Below, in pieces: positions 3,782-27,207 of a stretch of DNA of 64,000 bases. Each line of letters opens with the position of its first letter. Position 1 is the stretch's first letter. The notes under the pieces were generated by a model. It searched no databases and was not told the DNA's origin. It saw only the letters and a list, made by a program, of their open reading frames with translations. The position numbers and the translations under genes are program-made. Source of the stretch: Escherichia coli (lineage in GTDB: Bacteria; Pseudomonadota; Gammaproteobacteria; Enterobacterales; Enterobacteriaceae); the NCBI RefSeq assembly GCF_013122565.1, contig NZ_CP053258.1; one strand, written 5' to 3'.

Positions 3782-4127
3782 TCTCTGCTCCTGTTGATAC
3801 GGAAAGGGAAACAGGCACACCGTTATTCCGCCGCCCGGTCAGCTCCACCACCATTGAACCGTCAAAATTGCTGTTGATGGTGATGGAATCCAGCGTCATC
3901 CTTGGCTCCCAGCGACTCAGCGCCACATACACTGCCGACATGACCTGCAGGTGTAATGCCGGATTTTGTGGCTGGTCTATCAGTGCCGACAGCAGGGAAC
4001 CATATTCCCGACGGGCAATGCGGCTACCCTGCGGCGTCAGCAAAATGTCCCGCACCGACTGGCGCAGATGGTCCGTGTCTGTAATAGTTTTTCCGTTGTT
4101 CTGACTCATGCCGATATACAGCGTCAT
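3768..4127 (-). CDS. Baseplate protein (P2 gpW-like)
   Basis: 119 aa; ...DILLTPQGSRIARREYGSLLSALIDQPQ... resembles gpW; ATGA overlap with V. Confidence 0.8.
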   Translation of the reverse strand: MTLYIGMSQNNGKTITDTDHLRQSVRDILLTPQGSRIARREYGSLLSALIDQPQNPALHLQVMSAVYVALSRWEPRMTLDSITINSNFDGSMVVELTGRRNNGVPVSLSVSTGAENGSD

Positions 4128-4702
4128 ACCGGGCCTCCGGTTGTATCGCCGCCTTTCAGGACGCCAGTATGCTGATGCGCATCAACCACGATCCCGTTAG
4201 AACTCATCGCTCCGCCGCCCTGGGTAACGCCACCATTGATCACAACTTCGCTGTTAATGCGCGTGCGGTCAGCCTCCAGTACAAACTCACTGGTTTTCAG
4301 GGTGATATTGTCAGCGGCCTCAATGACCATGGATTTGATGCCCCTGACATACCAGCGCCCGGTGGCGGGTTCGTATTCAAACCAGCCACCGTCTGGGTAC
4401 TCAACCACGTTGCCGTCCTCAGAGTCTGAAGGTGGTGGAAACTGATTTGAGTAGACAGCAGGCAGGGCAAACGCGGTTTCCAGATTGCCACCCAGGCTGA
4501 ACAGCACAACCTGCTCGCCCACAGACGGTTTCCACCAGGTGCGCGATTTGCCCGCGCGCAGTGTCAGCCAGTTAATCCAGTTGGTTTCGAGGTCGCCCGT
4601 TTTCACCCGACACAGCCAGTTTTCCCGGTCCACTTCGGTGACTACACCTGTGCGAATCAGATTGGTGATAAGGCGCATGATTTCGGTTAGTTGTGCATTC
4701 AT
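4124..4702 (-). CDS. Baseplate spike/assembly protein (P2 gpV-like)
   Basis: 192 aa; MNAQLTEIMRLITNLIRTGVV... aligns with P2 V N-terminus. Confidence 0.85.
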   Translation of the reverse strand: MNAQLTEIMRLITNLIRTGVVTEVDRENWLCRVKTGDLETNWINWLTLRAGKSRTWWKPSVGEQVVLFSLGGNLETAFALPAVYSNQFPPPSDSEDGNVVEYPDGGWFEYEPATGRWYVRGIKSMVIEAADNITLKTSEFVLEADRTRINSEVVINGGVTQGGGAMSSNGIVVDAHQHTGVLKGGDTTGGPV

Positions 4703-4750
4703 GTCGACGATATTTGCACAAACATATATTGTGGGACATTGAGTCAGAAA

Positions 4751-4768
4751 TGTATGACTTACTACACA
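4751..4768. promoter_or_regulatory. TGT-N12-ACA dyad (P2-type late promoter activator element) upstream of V
   Basis: tgtatgacttactacaca; P2 late promoters carry a TGT-N12-ACA dyad bound by Ogr-type activators. Confidence 0.3.
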
Positions 4769-4795
4769 ATGTTTATCCGCGCAAAGGAGTTACAG

Positions 4796-5701
4796 ATGAC
4801 ACAAATCGGTATCTATGGATATTGCTTCACGAAAGAATTTACTTTTAAAGGAGGGACACTGATACCTCGTTACAAATCCTTTAAGGAACTAAAAGAGAAT
4901 AAATGCGATGGAAGCGAATATGTATTAAGTGGATTTTTCTCTCCCGCACATGCTTCTGAAAACACCGTCACTCAAATAATTTATGATCTTTCAGCTGTTT
5001 TAAGTTTCATTGAACAAAAAAATGTAATCATATCAAACTTCCTAGAGGAACATGAAACACCTGAAAAGTTAGATAATAATTTCCCACTAAAATTGAAGTC
5101 AAAAAGAAAGTCATCACTAGGAATAATTGTTGAAGATTACTTCTCTGAAAAGAGTCGCTCAGCGTTCATTGAGCTTGCGATGGATAAACTTCATAGAAAT
5201 ATTAATTCTCATCAAAACCCTTTTAGAACTGCGTTCTATAAGTCTATATTTTCTTTTAGGGAAAGAATGGACTATGTAGATGTTAAATACTTCCTTAATT
5301 TCTCAGCATTAGAATCCCTGTGCAGATATATCGATAACGAGTCGACATCTAGTTATACACCACAAATAATTACAAAGGTTTTAAAAGATTATGGTTTTAA
5401 TGTATCTAAAGAAGGCAACCCTGTACCACAAAGAAACGTGATTCACTATTGCACGCTTCGAAACTCTCTATTCCACAATGGAAATTATATTGGATACATT
5501 AAGAAAGATGATCCAAGCAGTATCATTAAATTAAGTGATTATTATTCAAATCTAAATTTACTTTTACCTTTAGTATTAATGAAATATATAGGATTCGATG
5601 ATGGATTAATTAACTGGGACTCATGGATAGACTATGAACCATTTCTCGCCCTCAGGCCTAAAAACTTAACTCCATCGAATGGTAAACAATCAATTAGATA
5701 G
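4796..5701 (+). CDS. AT-rich cargo gene: hypothetical protein with Rx4H motif (HEPN-like, abortive-infection-like candidate)
   Basis: About 301 aa from MTQIGIYGYCF with AGGAG RBS upstream; low GC relative to flanks; antisense to the S-V tail operon; motif RNSLFH. Confidence 0.7.
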   Translation: MTQIGIYGYCFTKEFTFKGGTLIPRYKSFKELKENKCDGSEYVLSGFFSPAHASENTVTQIIYDLSAVLSFIEQKNVIISNFLEEHETPEKLDNNFPLKLKSKRKSSLGIIVEDYFSEKSRSAFIELAMDKLHRNINSHQNPFRTAFYKSIFSFRERMDYVDVKYFLNFSALESLCRYIDNESTSSYTPQIITKVLKDYGFNVSKEGNPVPQRNVIHYCTLRNSLFHNGNYIGYIKKDDPSSIIKLSDYYSNLNLLLPLVLMKYIGFDDGLINWDSWIDYEPFLALRPKNLTPSNGKQSIR

Positions 5702-6136
5702 CCAGCGCAATAATACATCGTGGGTTAAGGATTCTACGTCATCATTAATACCTAACAAACGACGCTCTGCGTAACGGACCTCCGGTCCTTTGCGACTAAC
5801 GCGATCACGCAGGCCGTAATGGTGAACACGGGCAATACGCTGCACCTTGCCTTCAAACTGTACGCTGGCAGAGTCGGCGCTGGCGGCAGTTTTCAGGTAT
5901 TTTGTGGTGCGCAGCTTTGCAAACATCTGACGTTTGATGCGCCCCTTCTTGCTACGTGCTGTTACCCTGCGCGGTTCATAACTGCTGCCATCTGGATTGC
6001 GCTGCATCCTGATATTCTGCTGCTGTGTCCGGCGCAGTTCCTGCGCCAGCTGGCGCATCATGCGGCTTCTCGTGGCTGGTTCCAGATTCGCCAGCAAGGC
6101 ACTCAGCCAGTCGTCCACCTTCTGCAGTTCAGCCAC
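5690..6136 (-). CDS. Tail completion protein (P2 gpS-like)
   Basis: 148 aa; synteny R-S-V. Confidence 0.85.
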   Translation of the reverse strand: MAELQKVDDWLSALLANLEPATRSRMMRQLAQELRRTQQQNIRMQRNPDGSSYEPRRVTARSKKGRIKRQMFAKLRTTKYLKTAASADSASVQFEGKVQRIARVHHYGLRDRVSRKGPEVRYAERRLLGINDDVESLTHDVLLRWLSN

Positions 6137-6581
6137 GTTTCACCGTCCACATTTCTTCAGGTGCATCAGGTTCCGCTACAGCTTCAACGCTCGACACACT
6201 GCCGTCAGTGCTGACCAGCACACGCTCCGTCAGTTGCAGGTTCAGGCTGATATCACAGACATCGTTGCGCAGAATATCCACCTCAAAGGTGAATAGCTTT
6301 TCCCGTAACGCCAGGTTATTGATAGCATCGGGCTGGTTATCCCTCAGCCACAGCAAAACCGGGGCCATCAGCAGATTCTGGTCGCCGCTGAAATCCTCAA
6401 TCACCACGTTCAGGGTGTAACGGTACTCCCATGACATGGAGCTGGCCCCCGTGGCAACCAGCGAACCGTTATCCACAAACAGATGCAGTTTGTCCGGGTT
6501 ATTGCGGACATAAGGCACCGCTTTATTGAGGGCGTGGCGCAGGGATTGTGGTTTGTTCACTGTTTCGCTCCTGACACGCAA
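6129..6581 (-). CDS. Tail completion protein (P2 gpR-like)
   Basis: 150 aa; synteny. Confidence 0.85.
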   Translation of the reverse strand: MRVRSETVNKPQSLRHALNKAVPYVRNNPDKLHLFVDNGSLVATGASSMSWEYRYTLNVVIEDFSGDQNLLMAPVLLWLRDNQPDAINNLALREKLFTFEVDILRNDVCDISLNLQLTERVLVSTDGSVSSVEAVAEPDAPEEMWTVKRG

Positions 6582-9212: not shown

Positions 9213-10271
9213 TTACGCTCCGGTTTCGGCTGCGGCGGCGCTGAAATCACCAATCTGGATATTTTCCACCAGTGCGGCGCAGCGGTAGTCCTCAACCACA
9301 TAGGCTTCGTTAACGGATTCAAAGTTTTCAATCCGGTCACGTTTCGGGTTGTCGATAACTGAACGGCGGCGGGTGTCTTCCTGCCAGTAGATGGACAGGT
9401 TATCCAGACGGGTGATCAGCAGCGCATTCGGCGGGAAGAACGGCGCACGCACGGCCTGCAGGCCACCCATGCGTTTCTGACTGATGATCATATCGGCAGC
9501 CAGTTTTTCACTGTTTTCCTGCTCTTTGTTGACCAGCGGGAAATACTTGTCAGACAGCAGTTCACGACCGCAAATCACCACCAGATCGTCATCGTCCTGG
9601 TAGACCACGTCGATAAGCTCATTGACGGCATCCATCACCACGGCGTCCAGGTTGGCATATTCGCCACCTTTCCCGACTTTCACTGCGCCCGGTGTGGTTT
9701 CACCGCCCGTGGTGGTGCTGCCCATGACGTGATCCGGTGCATCCTCACGGATTTTCTGCAGCCAGCCTTTATTCACATCCTGCAGTAGCGGGTTTTCGCT
9801 ACGGTTGGAGGTTTTCGCACGCTTCACGCCGTTAAAGCCGATCATGATGCGGTCCAGTGCCTGACGTTTCACGATGGCGTCACGGATACGCACCTGAAAA
9901 TCCTGAAACTTCGCCCACAGGTCCAGCTTCGCGTAGGTCAGCACCGTGTCAAAGTTGGTCTGCTCGCATTTATATTCCACATCGACCATCAGCGTCGGAT
10001 CGACAGGTTCACGCTCTTTCGCGGTGGTATCAGTGGTTCCGGCAATGGTGCTGCCAACTCCCAGCCCCAGCAGCTGACCGGACTGCTCAGTCACTGGCGT
10101 GACGTTAATCAGCGTCAGGAAAGCGGCGGACTGCTGGATCTGGTCTTCCAGCGTCTGCTGCACAGACGGCTCCACGGTGAATTTGCTGGACAGTTCTTCA
10201 ACTGCCACACCGTTCAGACGCGCCAGCTGCTGCAGGTAAGCGTTAAAAGCAAAGCGGGTATTCTTCTTCAT
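9213..10271 (-). CDS. Major capsid protein (P2 gpN-like)
   Basis: 352 aa; synteny O-N-M. Confidence 0.9.
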   Translation of the reverse strand: MKKNTRFAFNAYLQQLARLNGVAVEELSSKFTVEPSVQQTLEDQIQQSAAFLTLINVTPVTEQSGQLLGLGVGSTIAGTTDTTAKEREPVDPTLMVDVEYKCEQTNFDTVLTYAKLDLWAKFQDFQVRIRDAIVKRQALDRIMIGFNGVKRAKTSNRSENPLLQDVNKGWLQKIREDAPDHVMGSTTTGGETTPGAVKVGKGGEYANLDAVVMDAVNELIDVVYQDDDDLVVICGRELLSDKYFPLVNKEQENSEKLAADMIISQKRMGGLQAVRAPFFPPNALLITRLDNLSIYWQEDTRRRSVIDNPKRDRIENFESVNEAYVVEDYRCAALVENIQIGDFSAAAAETGA

Positions 10272-10287: not shown

Positions 10288-11121
10288 TCAGCAATTGGTC
10301 AGAGTGTCAGCGGGGGCGTTACCGCCTGTTGCACGCTGGCGGTAGTCCTGGCGGCTGTCTTCATGACTTAGCTTGTCCACCAGTTCGTTAAAGGCGGTCA
10401 GCTGTGCCTGCAGGGCAGTCTCCAGCTCAGACAGGCGTTCTTCCTGCTCAGACAGGGATTTTTCGGTGCGTGCGCTCAGGTTCTGCTGCTCAGTGGCGAC
10501 CAGCTCCACGGCCTTATGCACATCAGAGAACCGGGCGTCATCGGACTGCTCTTTTTTGGTAAACAGCGCCGTGACGCGGGCAAACAGGGACGGTTTGTCG
10601 TCTTGGATTTCTTCCAGTTCGATCACCGTTTCCTCTGCAGCGGTAAAGAGATTGGCAGGATTCTGCTTGCGGTTTGCCAGCGGGTTATGGGCTGCACTGG
10701 CGCTGAATGTCAGCATTTCCGTACCCAGACTGGCAGGGTCATCAGTGGCAGCCAGGCCGACCAGGTAGGCTTTGCCCGTATCAGCGAACTTCGGGCTGAC
10801 TTCCATAGAGGTGAATAATTTCTGGCCTTTTTTCACCAGTTCCACCAGGGACTCCGTTGGCTCAACGTCGGCATACAGCGCCATCTTGCCTGCCAGCGGA
10901 CCTTCCGTGATTTCTTCAGCAAACAGCGCCGTCACCTTGCCGTAGCGGTTAAAGGTGCTGTCCGGCAGATAAGACTTGATGTGCTCAAGGTTAATCAGCG
11001 CGGTATACACCGCCGGGTTGTAGCTGGCTGCCATCTGTTCCAGCCATTCACGCTGGATTTCGCGTCCGTCGGTGGTGGCACCTTCCACCCCGATGCGAAA
11101 ACGCTTTGCTTTCACTGTCAT
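10288..11121 (-). CDS. Capsid scaffolding protein (P2 gpO-like)
   Basis: 277 aa; acidic/coiled-coil C-terminal part; divergent from P. Confidence 0.85.
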   Translation of the reverse strand: MTVKAKRFRIGVEGATTDGREIQREWLEQMAASYNPAVYTALINLEHIKSYLPDSTFNRYGKVTALFAEEITEGPLAGKMALYADVEPTESLVELVKKGQKLFTSMEVSPKFADTGKAYLVGLAATDDPASLGTEMLTFSASAAHNPLANRKQNPANLFTAAEETVIELEEIQDDKPSLFARVTALFTKKEQSDDARFSDVHKAVELVATEQQNLSARTEKSLSEQEERLSELETALQAQLTAFNELVDKLSHEDSRQDYRQRATGGNAPADTLTNC

Positions 11122-11199: not shown

Positions 11200-11217
11200 T
11201 GTACCGACAACCACACA
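11200..11217. promoter_or_regulatory. TGT-N12-ACA dyad in the divergent O/P late promoter region
   Basis: tgtaccgacaaccacaca, about 80 bp upstream of the O start codon. Confidence 0.35.
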
Positions 11218-11263
11218 AACCGCAGGCGGGGAAAGCCTTCATTCAAGGCTGTAGGTTTGTGCC

Positions 11264-13030
11264 ATGAACACCACACTGACACCCGCAGATCTCGATCCCC
11301 GTCGGCAGGCCATGCTGCTGTACTTTCAGGGATACCGCGTAGCCCGCATTGCTGAAATGCTGGGCGAGAAAGTTGCAACCGTTCACAGCTGGAAAAAACG
11401 CGACAAGTGGGGTGACTATGGGCCGCTGGATCAGATGCAGCTCACCACCGCCGCACGCTACTGCCAGCTCATCATGAAGGAGCACAAAGAAGGGAAAGAT
11501 TTCAAAGAGATTGACCTGCTGGCGCGCCAGTCTGAGCGCCACGCGCGGATCGGCAAGTTTAACAATGGCGGCAACGAATCCGACTTAAACCCTAACGTCG
11601 CCAACCGCAACAAAGGCCCACGCCGTCAGCCGGAAAAGAATGTTTTCACCGATGAGCAGATTGAGAAGCTGGAAGAAATCTTCCATTCCTCCATGTTCAA
11701 CTACCAGCGCCACTGGTGGGAAGCCGGAAAAACCAACCGCATCCGCAACCTGCTGAAGTCACGCCAGATCGGCGCGACCTTTTACTTTGCCCGTGAAGCC
11801 CTGATTGACGCCCTGCTGACCGGACGTAACCAGATTTTCCTTTCCGCCAGCAAGGCACAGGCCCACGTCTTTAAGCAGTACATCATCGACTTCGCCAAAG
11901 AAGTGGAGGTGGAGTTGAAAGGCGATCCGATGGTGCTTCCTAACGGGGCCACGCTTTACTTCCTCGGCACCAATGCCCGCACGGCCCAGAGTTATCACGG
12001 CAACCTGTATCTGGATGAATATTTCTGGATACCGAAATTCCAGGAGCTGCGCAAAGTGGCTTCCGGTATGGCTATTCACAAGAAATGGCGACAAACCTAT
12101 TTTTCCACGCCATCCAGCCTGACACACAGTGCTTATCCGTTCTGGTCCGGTGCGCTATTCAACCGTGGGCGCAACAAAGCCGATAAGGTGGACATCGACC
12201 TGTCCCACAGCAATCTGGCCCCCGGCCTGCTGTGCGCAGACGGGCAATACCGCCAGATTGTCACCGTGGAAGATGCAGTGCGCGGCGGATGTAACCTGTT
12301 CGACCTCGATCAGTTACGCATGGAGTACAGCCCGGACGAATACCAGAACCTGCTGATGTGCGAGTTTGTGGACGATCTCGCGTCTGTGTTCCCACTCAGC
12401 GAGCTGCAGGCGTGCATGGTGGACAGCTGGGAAGTCTGGACCGACTTTCATGCACTGGCACTGCGCCCATTTGGCTGGCGCGAAGTGTGGATCGGTTATG
12501 ACCCGGCGAAAGGTACGCAGAACGGCGACAGTGCCGGATGCGTGGTGGTGGCACCGCCAGCCGTGCCGGGCGGCAAGTTCCGCATTCTTGAGCGTTACCA
12601 GTGGCGCGGGATGGACTTTCGCGCCCAGGCTGACGCCATCAAAAAACTGACCGAACAGTACAACGTGACCTATATCGGCATCGACTCAACCGGCGTTGGT
12701 CACGGGGTTTATGAGAACGTGAAAGCGTTCTTTCCTGCCGTCCGGGAGTTTGTCTACAACCCCAACGTTAAAAACGCCCTGGTACTCAAGGCCTACGACA
12801 TTATCAGCCACCGCCGTCTGGAGTTTGACGCCGGGCACACCGACATTGCGCAGTCATTCATGGCAATCCGTCGCGCCACCACCGCCAGTGGCAACCGCCC
12901 GACCTATGAAGCCAGCCGCAGCGAAGAAGCCAGCCACGCCGATCTGGCCTGGGCAACGATGCACGCACTGTTTAACGAACCGCTGCAGGGCGAATCCGCC
13001 AATACCAGCAATATTGTGGAGATTTTTTGA
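11264..13030 (+). CDS. Terminase large (ATPase) subunit (P2 gpP-like)
   Basis: 588 aa; divergent from O as in P2. Confidence 0.9.
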   Translation: MNTTLTPADLDPRRQAMLLYFQGYRVARIAEMLGEKVATVHSWKKRDKWGDYGPLDQMQLTTAARYCQLIMKEHKEGKDFKEIDLLARQSERHARIGKFNNGGNESDLNPNVANRNKGPRRQPEKNVFTDEQIEKLEEIFHSSMFNYQRHWWEAGKTNRIRNLLKSRQIGATFYFAREALIDALLTGRNQIFLSASKAQAHVFKQYIIDFAKEVEVELKGDPMVLPNGATLYFLGTNARTAQSYHGNLYLDEYFWIPKFQELRKVASGMAIHKKWRQTYFSTPSSLTHSAYPFWSGALFNRGRNKADKVDIDLSHSNLAPGLLCADGQYRQIVTVEDAVRGGCNLFDLDQLRMEYSPDEYQNLLMCEFVDDLASVFPLSELQACMVDSWEVWTDFHALALRPFGWREVWIGYDPAKGTQNGDSAGCVVVAPPAVPGGKFRILERYQWRGMDFRAQADAIKKLTEQYNVTYIGIDSTGVGHGVYENVKAFFPAVREFVYNPNVKNALVLKAYDIISHRRLEFDAGHTDIAQSFMAIRRATTASGNRPTYEASRSEEASHADLAWATMHALFNEPLQGESANTSNIVEIF

Positions 13031-14108: not shown

Positions 14109-15869
14109 CTATATGCTGCATATTTTTTTATAATGTTCAAAAACATCTTTAAAAGTGTTGAGTATTATTTCAAAACCACTAAAATCAACTTTTCGTTTTT
14201 TATCCCTAACTACTTTCACAGAGAAAACATGTTTCCCATATTCAGTTTTTGAGTCCCCATCGTTCTTTTTGTTAAATTTTTTACCACCAAGAATAGTTGA
14301 TAATACATCATGAGTAAAAAGATCTTCCATCGCAGTCTGCTCACCAGTAGCACTTAAAGGCGTTAGAATGATATAGAGATTTTTAAAGACATGGATAAAT
14401 CTCATTTTTCTCATTTTATTGGTATCATCGGGGCAGCTCTTAACATTATTTTTAAGGAAATTCAAAATCTCATTAGAACCAGAATCGTTGTCCAATACCA
14501 TGATAACCGGGTGCTTAGGAATGCTTCCATAGTAGCTTGAATATTCATCCATATATCTTTCGATGAATTTTTTAAGATCTGCGCTACCTCCAGACATATT
14601 AATAAAATAACTTGACTTCTCATCAGATTTAAAAATATTCAAGTTGATATCATTTCCTTTACCGTCTGTGCTTTTCTTGAGCAACTCAGGAAATTTGGCA
14701 GAAAGTGAACGAATAGCTGATTTTAAATATACTCGATCAGTTTTGCCTTCTGTCAAGATTGTCGGGGAAGCATGTCCATGAAAAAACTTGTAGTAAATAA
14801 ATTTACTATATGCCTTCTCTCGTACATTCAGCTTTAACCTGTAGTTTTTTAATGTAATATGAATAGGCGCATATTTTTCAGGCTGTTTACTTATTTTATC
14901 TTGTATGTTATTAAATTTATCAATCTGGTCAATAAACCCAAATCTTCCCTCTAGTTTTTCGATACTCCCCACGACTAGCTTACCATCTTCATCAGGTAGC
15001 TTATATTCTCCCTTACTATAAAGTGAATGAGCTAATGCTCTTGTTTTATTCGAATATTTCCTATCAACGTTAACAAATCTATTTATAGTAAGTCCCGTAA
15101 CTTCTTGTCTCGTGGATTTGTACGAGATCCTTGTTTTAGCATCATTAATATCAAAACCAGCACGTTTTATTTCACTGACAAGAATGCTCCCCAAGACAAC
15201 CCCCTCAGGAAGAGATATTGCCAAATCGGTAGGAAATTCTTTTTTATTAGTTGAAAACGTGATGTCATCGGCATAACGACTATATGAACAACCTAAACTC
15301 TTTGCTAATTTAGCTAATCTAATATCCATAATGCTACAAATTAAGTTTGTTATCACTGGAGAACACGGGCTACCCTGAGGCAAACTTCCCTTATAGCATG
15401 CGGCTTTAGCTAAAGTAGTGGCGACAATCGGATTTAATAAGAAATCCCTATTGGATAGGAAGTACCCTCTCACTCGCCCAAAATTAAAGCTTTTGAAAAA
15501 ATCCTTAAGATCAATATTGAGTATTATATTTTTCCCACGATGTCTGAAAGCATTGGAAATTATTGACTTATTTCTTTCAAAACCAAAGGAGTAATTGTTT
15601 TTAATTTTTTTAATTTTGAAAGTTTCATCTCTACACTCCATTAAAAGATCGGCTATTCGTCTTTGGAGATCTTTCAAACTATCTTCTGGCGCAGAAATCA
15701 ATCTGACTCCCTTACCTTTTTTTGGAATAGAGAAATCTTTATACTGATTATCAGTACCAATTCTGTAAAGAATATTCGTTAAAAACACCAACTTAACATC
15801 TAGCAATTTTGCCAAGTCAGCACGAGATGCTGCGACTTTCAAAAGTAGTAATTTAGAAGTTGCGACCAT
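14109..15869 (-). CDS. ret: Retron reverse transcriptase with C-terminal TOPRIM domain (RT-TOPRIM fusion; consistent with retron-Ec67 / Retron-Eco2 RT)
   Basis: 586 aa; RT motifs [23 protein letters not shown] (res 199-202); TOPRIM-like TEGKTD (373-378) and VLDNDSG (458-464); strongly AT-rich. Confidence 0.9.
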
Positions 15870-23671: not shown

Positions 23672-25348
23672 ATGAATTCATTTGCCATCGTTATACTCTT
23701 ATTAGCATTTCTCGCCCCTGTTCTAGCTGTAATATTATTTAAACAAAGTAAAAAACACAAAGCGGCTATAGATAACCTGACAGCTAACAACATAGCCCTT
23801 TCTAACCAACTGATTGAAAATCAAGAAAAACTAGCACAGACCGTACGAGAATTATCAGATCTTGAAGGGCGAGCAGCACCATTGTGGCAATACGAAGAAT
23901 TGCACAGCGCAGTAATGGATGCAGAGAATAAGATAAAAAATGCGGACTCAATAGCCAAGCAAAAAATAGATGAAGCCCAAATTAAGGCGGCTAAAACAGT
24001 AAACGAAGCAAATTATCAAGCTCAGATAACAATAAGCAACGCTAATAGCGAAGCTATAGCAATCACCAAAGACGCTCGCGATGCACGCCTGAAAGCCAAA
24101 GAACGTCTTGATAATGCTAATAATAAAGCAAATGAGCTAATCTCAAATGCTAATGACAATGCAGTAAAAATTATTTCTGATGCAGAAGAAAGAGCAAAGG
24201 AGATTGCTGGTTCAGCATATGAAGCTAAAGAGTTTGCAGAAAAATATGAAGCAGTTGCAAAATCAATGAAAAATAAAATTGAAGGTTATGGTGATGAATG
24301 GATCATCCCTAACCGTAGTGTACTTGATGAGCTGGCAGAAAATTATGAATTTACAGATGCAGGCAAGGAATTACAAAAAGCCAGAGAGTTAACCAAATCA
24401 TTAATAAAAACTAATAAAGCTGCTTCGTGTGATTATGTTGAGCAAAACAGGCGTAATACTGCCATAAACTTTGTTTTGGATGCCTTCAATGGAAGAGTTG
24501 ACAGTATTTTATCAAAAGTCAAACACAACAATTTTGGAAAACTTTCCCAAGAAATAAAAGATGCATTTCAACTAGTAAATTACAATGGCTCTGCCTTTAG
24601 GTCCGCAAAAATAAGTGACATCTATCTTCAGGCAAGACTCAACGAGCTAAAATGGGGTGTAGCAGTTAATGAAATTATGCTCGAAGAAAAAGAAGAGCAA
24701 AGAAGGATTAAAGAACAGCTTCGTGAAGAGGAAAGAGCTCGTAGAGAATATGAAAAAGCGATAAAAGAAGCTGAAAAAGAAGAAAAAGCTATTCAGCAAG
24801 CTATAAATAAAGCAACGAAAGAACTTATGCTTGCAAATGAAGAACAACGCTTAGCTTTAGAGCAAAAAATAGCTGAACTACAGTTAAAATATGAAGAAGC
24901 TGAAGCTAAAAATCAACGAGCTATTTCTATGGCTCAACAAACCAGATCAGGCCACGTCTATATCATTAGTAATATTGGTTCATTTGGCGAAGATGTATAT
25001 AAAATTGGAATGACACGCCGCCTTGAACCACTTGATCGTGTTCGTGAACTCGGAGATGCTAGTGTTCCTTTTTCGTTCGATGTTCATGCGATGATTTATA
25101 GTGATGATGCACCATCATTAGAAAACCATCTGCATAAAGTTTTCAACGAAAAGCAGGTCAATAAAATTAACTCACGAAAAGAGTTTTTTAACGTAAATTT
25201 AAAAGAAATCAAATCAGTTATTGAAGACATGAACATCAACGCCCACTGGACAATGTTTGCAGAGGCGAAAGAATATAGAGAGTCTCTAGCTATTGAGCAG
25301 GAGCGCAAAGCAGCCACTTCCGCCAACGATGAACTACATGTTGCTTAG
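23672..25348 (+). CDS. AT-rich cargo gene: membrane-anchored coiled-coil protein with C-terminal T5orf172 (GIY-YIG-like) domain; DUF4041-type architecture; defense candidate
   Basis: 558 aa; N-terminal TM helix, long K/E/A-rich coiled coils, C-terminal GHVYIISNIGSFGEDVYKIGMTRRLEPLDRVRELGDASVPFSFDV; co-directional with cI and int. Confidence 0.85.
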   Translation: MNSFAIVILLLAFLAPVLAVILFKQSKKHKAAIDNLTANNIALSNQLIENQEKLAQTVRELSDLEGRAAPLWQYEELHSAVMDAENKIKNADSIAKQKIDEAQIKAAKTVNEANYQAQITISNANSEAIAITKDARDARLKAKERLDNANNKANELISNANDNAVKIISDAEERAKEIAGSAYEAKEFAEKYEAVAKSMKNKIEGYGDEWIIPNRSVLDELAENYEFTDAGKELQKARELTKSLIKTNKAASCDYVEQNRRNTAINFVLDAFNGRVDSILSKVKHNNFGKLSQEIKDAFQLVNYNGSAFRSAKISDIYLQARLNELKWGVAVNEIMLEEKEEQRRIKEQLREEERARREYEKAIKEAEKEEKAIQQAINKATKELMLANEEQRLALEQKIAELQLKYEEAEAKNQRAISMAQQTRSGHVYIISNIGSFGEDVYKIGMTRRLEPLDRVRELGDASVPFSFDVHAMIYSDDAPSLENHLHKVFNEKQVNKINSRKEFFNVNLKEIKSVIEDMNINAHWTMFAEAKEYRESLAIEQERKAATSANDELHVA

Positions 25349-25430: not shown

Positions 25431-26486
25431 ATGGCAGTACGAAAACTAACCACAGGGAAATGGCTTTGCGAATGTTACCCCGCCGGACGTAGCGGACGCC
25501 GTGTGCGTAAACAATTCGCCACCAAAGGCGAAGCACTGGCCTTCGAGCGATACACCATGGGGGAAATAGAAGCAAAGCCCTGGCTGGGCGAATCAGTGGA
25601 TCGTCGGACACTGAAAGATATGGTTGAGCTATGGTTCAAATTACATGGCAAATCTCTTACTGCCGGACAGCATGTCTACAACAAGCTGCTGTTGATGGTT
25701 GACGCCTTGGGAAATCCCCTTGCAACTGATCTCACCTCAAAAATGTTTGCTCACTATCGCGATAAACGCCTTACTGGTGAAATCTACTTCAGTGAAAAAT
25801 GGAAGAAAGGAGCAAGCCCAGTTACTGTTAACCTGGAGCAAAGCCATCTAAGCAGCGTTTTCAGAGAACTTTCCCGCCTGGGTGAATGGACACTTCCAAA
25901 CCCATTAGAGAAGATGCGCAAATTCACTATCGCAGAAAAGGAAATGGCATGGCTTACACATGAGCAGATTATCGAATTACTGTCTGACTGCAAACGTCAG
26001 AACCCAATTCTGGCACTGGTGGTAAAAATATGTCTAAGTACAGGCGCACGTTGGCGAGAAGCAATCAATCTTACCCGCTCACAGGTCACCAAGTACCGAA
26101 TCACCTTTGTGAGAACGAAGGGGAAGAAAAACAGAAGCATCCCTATCAGTAAAGAGCTTTATGAAGAGATCATGGCGCTCGATGGGTTCAATTTCTTCAC
26201 AGACTGCTATTTTCAATTTTTATCCGTGATGGAAAAAACGTCTATCGTTCTCCCTCGCGGTCAACTGACACACGTTCTGCGCCATACGTTTGCGGCGCAC
26301 TTCATGATGTCGGGTGGAAACATCTTGGCCTTACAAAAAATTCTCGGACACCACGATATAAAAATGACTATGCGTTATGCGCATCTGGCACCGGATCATT
26401 TGGAAACGGCGCTCCGTTTCAATCCACTGGCAACGTTACCAAATGGCGACAAAGTGGCGGCAGCGGTTGGCATTACCCCGCAATAA
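25431..26486 (+). CDS. int: Tyrosine site-specific integrase (P2/186-like)
   Basis: 351 aa; C-terminal catalytic region ...LRHTFAAHFMMSGGNILALQKILGHHDIKMTMRYAHL (R, H-x-x-R, Y). Confidence 0.9.
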   Translation: MAVRKLTTGKWLCECYPAGRSGRRVRKQFATKGEALAFERYTMGEIEAKPWLGESVDRRTLKDMVELWFKLHGKSLTAGQHVYNKLLLMVDALGNPLATDLTSKMFAHYRDKRLTGEIYFSEKWKKGASPVTVNLEQSHLSSVFRELSRLGEWTLPNPLEKMRKFTIAEKEMAWLTHEQIIELLSDCKRQNPILALVVKICLSTGARWREAINLTRSQVTKYRITFVRTKGKKNRSIPISKELYEEIMALDGFNFFTDCYFQFLSVMEKTSIVLPRGQLTHVLRHTFAAHFMMSGGNILALQKILGHHDIKMTMRYAHLAPDHLETALRFNPLATLPNGDKVAAAVGITPQ

Positions 26487-26587: not shown

Positions 26588-27124
26588 CTACCCTGCAACC
26601 CTCTCAACCATCCTCAAAATCTCCTCGCGCGATAGCGGCTTACGGTCGGTGACAAAATGCAGCGTCATCCCCTCAATAAACGCATCAAGCGCGCGGGCGG
26701 TTCCGGGTTCAAACCATTGTTCGAGCGTTTGCTGACTGCGCTGCATCCAGTTTTGCATTACCGTTTTTAATAGCGGTTTTCGGCTAGCCAGCGCGTAGAG
26801 CTGGTACATCAGCTCCATGTTATCCGGCGTTGCCACCTGTGAGCTGTAGATCATATCGGTGATAGCCTGGCATGCGCCTTGAGCATCACGAACATCGCTA
26901 AAAAATGCCTGATATTGCCGGGACATGATCTCAGTAAAACTGCTGAACGCCTCCAGCAACAACTCATCAATTCCTGAAAAATAGTAGGTCATCGATCCCA
27001 ACGGTACCCCGGCAAGGGTAGCAATTTTGCGGTGCGTAACAGCATGTATTCCGTAAAGTTTCACCGCCTCCAGCGTGGCCTGGATAATTTTTTCTCGCCG
27101 TTGCGGATCGTTAGCGCGACGCAT
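26588..27124 (-). CDS. rcdA: TetR-family transcriptional regulator RcdA (YbjK)
   Basis: Trimmed to [21 protein letters not shown]... (178 aa); synteny with ybjJ. Confidence 0.9.
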
Positions 27125-27207
27125 GTCATTTCCTCTCTCTGCAATTGTGTACAAATGTACACAACCTTGCTAATGTTGTCTTCCCTCTTCTTATTTTGAC
27201 GTGATCT

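Follow-up and report, generated by a model that had tools for sequence, protein, structure and literature searches.

A probable Ogr-type activator site at a fixed distance upstream of gene V in a P2/186-like prophage of Escherichia coli

The DNA analyzed here is a 64-kb stretch of an Escherichia coli genome, referred to below as the window, which contains part of a P2/186-like prophage. The region of interest lies between two divergent genes. On the minus strand, gene V (4124 to 4702) encodes a baseplate spike or assembly protein of 192 amino acids and is the first gene of the late morphogenetic operon V-W-J-I-H-G; its product is 42% identical to P2 V, and close relatives annotate it as baseplate assembly protein V. 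On the plus strand, an accessory gene (4796 to 5701), called here the cargo gene, encodes a 301-amino-acid protein of family phrog_4373 and is preceded by the Shine-Dalgarno sequence AAGGAG at positions 4784 to 4789. Beyond it lies the tail completion gene S (5690 to 6136, minus strand), the last gene of the O late operon, which is convergent with the cargo gene and overlaps it by 12 bp (5690 to 5701). With the V ATG at 4702 and the cargo ATG at 4796, the interval between V and the cargo gene spans 4703 to 4795, which is 93 bp, as an earlier sequence-only reading of this DNA had reported. That reading also placed tgtatgacttactacaca at 4751 to 4768, and these coordinates are exact: the 18-mer there, TGTATGACTTACTACACA, is an exact match to TGT-N12-ACA located between V and the cargo gene, directly upstream of the late operon on the minus strand. 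In the V sense, it reads TGTGTAGTAAGTCATACA. The center falls at 4759.5, which leaves 57.5 bp to the first base of the V start codon (4702). From its sequence, geometry, and conservation, it is predicted to be the dyad to which an Ogr/B-type late activator of pV, the promoter of V, would bind.

The motif taken by itself carries little information. TGT-N12-ACA was not enriched in the window, with 14 matches versus 15.3 ± 4.1 expected from dinucleotide shuffles. The bare motif is therefore at chance level, the nonrandom feature is position, and the case for the dyad rests on its position rather than on the motif. Matches can also be unrelated to phage late control, as indicated by the perfect palindrome TGTGTACAAATGTACACA at 27146 to 27163, another TGT-N12-ACA match in the window. 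This palindrome overlaps the 5' end of a TetR-family open reading frame (ORF; 26588 to 27154, minus strand) and lies upstream of a divergent major facilitator superfamily (MFS) transporter gene (27208, plus strand), and it is very probably a host TetR-type operator. Both the number of matches and the presence of at least one unrelated host operator among them would fit the view that a loosely defined 6-base motif is matched at 4751 to 4768 by chance. However, this explanation is effectively refuted, and its likelihood is close to nil, because the position of the dyad was kept in all 21 sequence classes of the comparison described below, at a chance of about 0.0013 per sequence.

The upstream region of V was compared in 84 sequences, made up of 80 IMG/VR loci (V 92 to 99% identical), 3 GenBank phages, and the window. 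These fell into 16 upstream classes that were mutually unalignable, and 5 further cassettes, added through homologues of the cargo protein, brought the total to 21 sequence classes. The largest class, with 54 of the 84 sequences, was a cargo-less allele with an S-V interval of only 68 bp; the intervals of the other classes were 553, 800, 851, 887, 967, about 985, 1,038, 1,214, 1,356, 1,393, 1,539, 2,129, and 2,229 bp. Exactly one exact TGT-N12-ACA was present within 130 bp upstream of V in every one of the 84 sequences, and its center was always 54.5 to 57.5 bp upstream of the V ATG. The 5 further cassettes had the dyad at the same position relative to the V ATG, so that the position held in 21 of 21 classes. 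According to shuffling, the chance of an exact dyad in this four-position slot is about 0.0013 per sequence. When the 16 classes were aligned on the dyad, the logo T-TGT-R-Y-C-A-N4-T-S-A-Y-ACA-A was obtained. The proximal half of the window dyad (TCATACA) corresponds to this consensus, and its distal half fits in part: it departs from the clade consensus at two positions, one of them being an A at position 6 where 11 of the 16 classes have C. Its center is also 2 bp farther from the V ATG than in the commonest class. The cargo-less phages (KP12, 500465-1, and most of the IMG/VR loci) have a perfectly palindromic dyad, TGTATCAGCACTGATACA, at 55.5 bp from V. An exact match is frequently missing from the P2 clade proper, where a TGTGYCA half-site is all that remains at this place; the exact-motif criterion is thus good for the clade of this prophage only. 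The comparison amounts to an unusually clean natural footprint, in which nothing is common to 21 unrelated sequences but the TGT and ACA triplets and a -10 element, each at a fixed distance from the start codon.

The sequence between the dyad and V contains an extended -10-like element, TGcAAATAT (4710 to 4718, minus strand), with its TG at -16/-15 and its hexamer at -13 to -8 relative to the V ATG. It ends in ...TGTGCAAATATCGTCGAC-ATG without a Shine-Dalgarno sequence. In the 21 classes aligned on the ATG, an A was found at -11 in 17 classes and at -12 in 13, a T at -7 or -8, a G at -15/-14 in about half of the classes, often within a TG, and a C at -1 in 15. A Shine-Dalgarno-like word preceded V in only 1 of the 21 classes, and none preceded V in the window. 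A scan of positions 4400 to 6200 for sigma-70 promoters and terminators found no full sigma-70 promoter with a -35 element in the V-cargo interval. The combination of A at -11, T at -7 or -8, and C at -1 has the signature of a -10 element placed so that transcription would start at the A of the ATG, and these sequence features support a leaderless V across the clade. By reference to P2, the transcription start in the window is predicted at position 4702 on the minus strand, where the V ATG begins, or no more than 1 to 2 nt away. Cassettes of the phrog_4373 family, whose cargo proteins are 55 to 65% identical, share a near-invariant block from -30 to -1, GATAAATGTTTRTGYAARTATCGTCGAC, as well as the dyad ends TGTGTG...CCATACA. 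Maintenance of this block and of the dyad ends despite the divergence of the cargo argues for purifying selection on the promoter.

The same dyad could serve V through a different geometry, in which an ATATAT or ATAAAT word would set the transcription start about 15 nt before the ATG, the dyad would lie near -42 in a class II-like arrangement, and V would have a short leader. An A/T-rich hexamer at about -27 to -22 (ATATAT in the window) is kept among the phrog_4373 cassettes and in P2 (TATATAT). However, P2 has the same arrangement, and yet its start is annotated at the V ATG. Moreover, other cassette classes that lack the A/T-rich word keep the A at -11 and the T at -7, and a 15-nt leader of V would still be without a Shine-Dalgarno sequence. 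We regard this geometry as very unlikely.

We also searched for the cognate activator, for which the Ogr homologue WP_000972391.1 is a candidate. No Ogr homologue was found in the 64-kb window, whose left end cuts the prophage short. The prophage of E. coli FACU 2024, which is about 99% identical over the late region, has an ogr/Delta-like zinc finger gene beside D, at the prophage end. An Ogr/Delta gene (PF04606, E = 1.7e-20) was also found in ST437-OXA245phi4.1, a Klebsiella phage with a homologue of the cargo gene. In the FACU 2024 prophage, perfect dyads also mark the remaining places where late promoters are expected, namely, the pF position and the shared pP/pO site. The pF-position dyad, upstream of the tail sheath gene (10027 to 10044 of locus L169), is about 85 bp from the ATG, which leaves room for a leader of about 30 nt with GGAGG. 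The pV, pF-position, and pP/pO dyads all begin with TGTGT in the late-gene sense. Within the window, the other late dyad of the prophage is TGTACCGACAACCACACA at 11200 to 11217, common to the divergent promoters pP and pO. It is probably the first dyad implied by the sequence-only reading, in which 4751 to 4768 was called the second. Its center is 55.5 bp from the ATG of the terminase gene P (11264). This ATG aligns with the start of P in P2 and is preceded by a -10-like TAGGTT without a clear Shine-Dalgarno sequence; judging from this sequence, P may be leaderless in this phage, versus a 23-nt leader in P2. A second exact dyad, at 11258 to 11275, overlaps the start codon of P.

The proposal that 4751 to 4768 is a late promoter element for V has good support from three sides: the geometry, the annotation of the P2 reference, and the conservation of the dyad where upstream sequences are otherwise unrelated. 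We consider it highly probable that this dyad serves pV as an Ogr-type activator site, pV being the late promoter for V-W-J-I-H-G, which is the baseplate and tail fiber operon of a P2/186-like prophage in E. coli. Sites of this type are a known kind of element, of which 4751 to 4768 is a further instance; that the activator binds it, where transcription starts, and that expression is late are all taken by analogy from P2. According to the model, during lytic growth a small zinc-finger activator of the Ogr/Delta/B family would bind TGT-N12-ACA about 55 to 57 bp upstream of the start. The bound activator would recruit sigma-70 RNA polymerase to a promoter that has the -10-like TGcAAATAT (4718 to 4710) and no -35 element. 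Transcription would start at or beside the A of the V ATG (4702), and V would be translated from a leaderless mRNA. For annotation, the site fixes the pV promoter and the true start of V in a prophage family that is widespread in E. coli and Klebsiella.

We also considered the dyad as a structural element, which might close the O operon as a hairpin or terminator or belong to a folded 5' untranslated region of the cargo gene. The cargo-less allele fits such a role to some extent, as the 8+8 palindrome of its dyad is perfect and follows immediately on the S stop codon, and the 93-nt interval of the window folds somewhat better than shuffled sequences (z = -1.8 and -2.4). On the other hand, the arms of the window dyad pair through TGT/ACA only, and the local fold (z = +0.35) is no better than that of shuffles. 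Neither a T-run after the dyad nor an Rfam match was found, and nothing in the dyad corresponds to the GC-rich hairpin and T-run of an intrinsic terminator or to a known structured RNA family. A longer inverted repeat around the dyad is absent from the cassettes of loci L173, L176, and L179. Taken together, a structural role appears most improbable. The longer repeat is an imperfect one that flanks the dyad at 4713 to 4733 and 4765 to 4785, with its arms at the -10 region of V and beside the Shine-Dalgarno sequence of the cargo gene. At the corresponding places, the ST437 phage contains an inverted repeat of 10 bp in which some changes look compensatory. This flanking repeat, or hairpin, was rejected as a functional element since it is missing from the same three cassettes. 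As to the end of the O operon, the scan of 4400 to 6200 gave no convincing terminator after S and only one weak terminator-like site, located inside the cargo gene. Late transcription from pO thus probably reads antisense through the cargo gene.

The cargo protein gave no significant match in Pfam, NCBIfam, or PADLOC, and its sole match was phrog_4373, a family of unknown function. An AlphaFold model (pLDDT 88) showed an N-terminal alpha/beta domain and a C-terminal helical domain, and the latter appears to adopt the four-helix HEPN fold in the model. An Rx4-6H motif is present as RNSLFH at residues 222 to 227, with R222 and H227 invariant in 29 homologues. Because of the predicted fold of the helical domain and the RNSLFH motif, the label "HEPN-like" given to this gene in the sequence-only reading appears reasonable at the level of fold and motif. 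Members of phrog_4373 also occur outside P2-like phages, one on the chromosome of an Acinetobacter and another beside a resolvase in a Klebsiella element. The only IMG/VR copy of the exact cargo gene (L085:1501-2405; about 98% identity) is split into two frames near codons 74 to 77, which is a frameshift or a sequencing error.

The second role suggested for the dyad, that it may drive the cargo gene, was not supported: its distance to V is held, its distance to the cargo gene varies, and cargo-less phages keep it. The center of the dyad is 36.5 bp from the cargo ATG in the window versus 41.5 bp in a Pantoea P2-like phage, in which the distance from the dyad to V stays at 55.5 bp. No TGT-N12-ACA occurs within 200 bp upstream of the cargo homologues in the Acinetobacter chromosome and the resolvase-linked Klebsiella element. 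In the other cassettes, the near ends of unrelated cargo genes, whether starts or stops, lie about 11 to about 215 bp past the distal edge of the dyad, in either orientation, and two of these genes are oriented in the same direction as V. As judged from these sequences, the dyad appears to track V and not the cargo. A search for the promoter of the cargo gene itself found no conserved -35/-10 elements.

A related idea is that the dyad also, or instead, regulates the cargo gene, either as an activator site or as an operator over the cargo -10 that would switch the gene off or on late. Several features of the window would suit this. The edge of the dyad is only 27 bp upstream of the cargo ATG, and CACAAT at 4765 to 4770 on the cargo strand, at the end of the dyad, resembles a -10 element that would leave a leader of about 19 nt including the Shine-Dalgarno sequence. 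The ST437 phage has TACAAT at the same spot on the cargo strand, and in P2 one activator site serves two divergent promoters. However, a plus-strand start 55 bp from the dyad would fall at about 4815, some 18 nt inside the cargo ORF and with no in-frame ATG nearby. CACAAT or TACAAT over the dyad occurs in two cassettes only and is absent in L007 and L173, and the scan showed no sigma-70-like promoter in the interval. The variation of the dyad-to-cargo distance within the cargo family (36.5 to 41.5 bp) and the cargo homologues without the dyad outside P2-like phages also speak against it. Such regulation of the cargo gene seems to us quite unlikely.

Homology between the window and the cargo-less allele breaks exactly at the V ATG on one side and about 50 to 70 nt inside the 3' end of S on the other. 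Because of these two breaks, the pV promoter must be counted as part of an exchanged cassette and not as a retained element. The earlier suggestion that the promoter was retained when the cargo was inserted right beside it therefore has to be abandoned: the interval shares only the TGT and ACA triplets with the cargo-less allele, and the whole cassette was exchanged. This exchangeable AT-rich cassette (about 33% GC) extends from 4703 to 5760, the right boundary being approximate (5740 to 5760), and comprises the pV promoter, the cargo gene, and the diverged last 17 to 23 or so codons of S. It occupies the same slot, in the same orientation, as orf30 of P2, and phages have swapped it as a unit (about 4703 to 5760). 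The exact cassette of the window was found in 7 of 5,426 complete E. coli genomes; E. coli FACU 2024 and STK78-E, for example, have it at more than 99% identity.

In close relatives (loci L005 to L084), the slot between S and V is occupied by no fewer than 15 different AT-rich cassettes of 31 to 37% GC. One of them (L005, 272 to 2500) carries two genes, the larger of which has an N terminus resembling that of a P-loop ATPase; another (L014, 372 to 2500) encodes a 591-amino-acid protein with a DUF262-like N terminus, both likenesses being judged from N-terminal motifs only. Similarly, the N-terminal sequence motif of L024 indicates a Cys/His-rich protein of 271 amino acids. Other accessory slots are present in the prophage of the window. 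At 14109 to 15869 (minus strand), in the counterpart of the old/tin hot spot immediately beyond the portal gene, lies a gene for a 586-amino-acid reverse transcriptase (RVT_1, E = 4e-27), probably a retron or defense-associated reverse transcriptase; the near-identical FACU 2024 prophage has a TIR-domain gene in this slot instead. A 558-amino-acid protein with T5orf172/MUG113 and DUF4041 domains is encoded immediately beside the prophage integrase, the two genes being at 23672 to 25348 and 25431 to 26486 (both plus strand). The slot beside the integrase is another accessory slot at the prophage end.

These observations could be joined in a broader scheme. The S-V slot of P2/186-like prophages would be a little-studied cargo or defense hot spot, each cassette bringing its own Ogr-dependent leaderless V promoter. 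The dyad would be a switch coupling the HEPN-like gene to the lysogeny-to-late transition, and at virion commitment the cargo would be silenced jointly by the activator bound over its putative -10 and by antisense transcripts running on from the unterminated O operon. We offer this full scheme as a speculation and consider it rather unlikely. Apart from it, an essential promoter moves along whenever the accessory cassettes between S and V are exchanged, and one boundary of these cassettes is exactly at a start codon; this sets limits on the movement of S-V cassettes and on the expression of their genes.

Both the Ogr-type activator sites of the P2 late promoters and the leaderless message of V are established knowledge dating from the 1980s. 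The zinc-finger activators Ogr, Delta, and B are interchangeable at pP/pO of P2 and at the late promoters of P4 and 186, and the dyad lies about 55 bp upstream of the start, according to the annotation of the P2 record and the literature. The TGT-N12-ACA consensus of four P2 late promoters and their Ogr dependence are described in PMC3931495, which also bears on the two preceding points, and the part of PMC4633059 that gives references for leaderless genes from lambda and P2 phage includes Christie & Calendar 1985. The P2 record (NC_001895) annotates positions 10239 to 10266 as "activator binding site; activation of pV promoter" and sets the transcription start of the V operon at 10308, exactly where the V coding sequence begins; V of P2 is thus leaderless. 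The center of this site is 55.5 bp from the annotated start. The leaderless annotation is not a default, because the starts of pP and pO (3016 and 3127) are placed 23 and 40 nt upstream of their genes in the same record, with one activator site common to both and centered 55 to 56 bp from each start.

Comparison with the S-V interval of P2, proposed in the sequence-only reading as a check, bore out the assignment, with an activator site at a matching distance from V and orf30 divergent just beyond it. Like the window site, pV of P2 lies upstream of V-W-J-I-H-G, with its activator site about 55 to 57 bp from the V ATG. The -10 regions (TGTGCAA(T/A)) are similar, and neither promoter has a -35 element or a Shine-Dalgarno sequence. 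The -10 equivalent of P2, TGTGCAATCT, and its pre-V end, ...TGTGCAATCTCACATGC-ATG, are at the same place as those of the window. The two differ in that the P2 site is off consensus (TGT-N11-ACA or TGT-N12-CAA), whereas that of the window is an exact TGT-N12-ACA, and V of the window is only 42% identical to that of P2. The orf30 gene resembles the cargo gene in being a nonessential, AT-rich gene between S and V, divergent and just beyond the activator site. No homology of the window cargo to orf30 was found, and orf30 sits between the S terminator and the pV site, whereas the window has no recognizable terminator after S. In 186, the same layout is found upstream of orf32, the V homologue, but only the distal half-site TGTGTGA is kept. 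Since neither the P2 nor the 186 pV site is an exact match, strict TGT-N12-ACA is not an absolute requirement. The pP/pO promoters of P2, the late promoters of P4, and the B-activated late promoters of 186 have the same dyad consensus at the same upstream position as the window; unlike the predicted leaderless V, however, the P2 pP/pO promoters give leadered mRNAs. With respect to the cassettes, earlier accounts of the old/tin and Z/fun hot spots of P2-like prophages (Rousset et al. 2022, PMC9122126) and of the variable orf30 region (PMC3091744) describe AT-rich accessory genes swapped at a fixed slot between conserved late genes, as found here; a term search of the two papers did not meet the S-V slot. 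Compared with those hot spots, the cassette of the window includes an essential promoter, and its boundary is the start codon of V.
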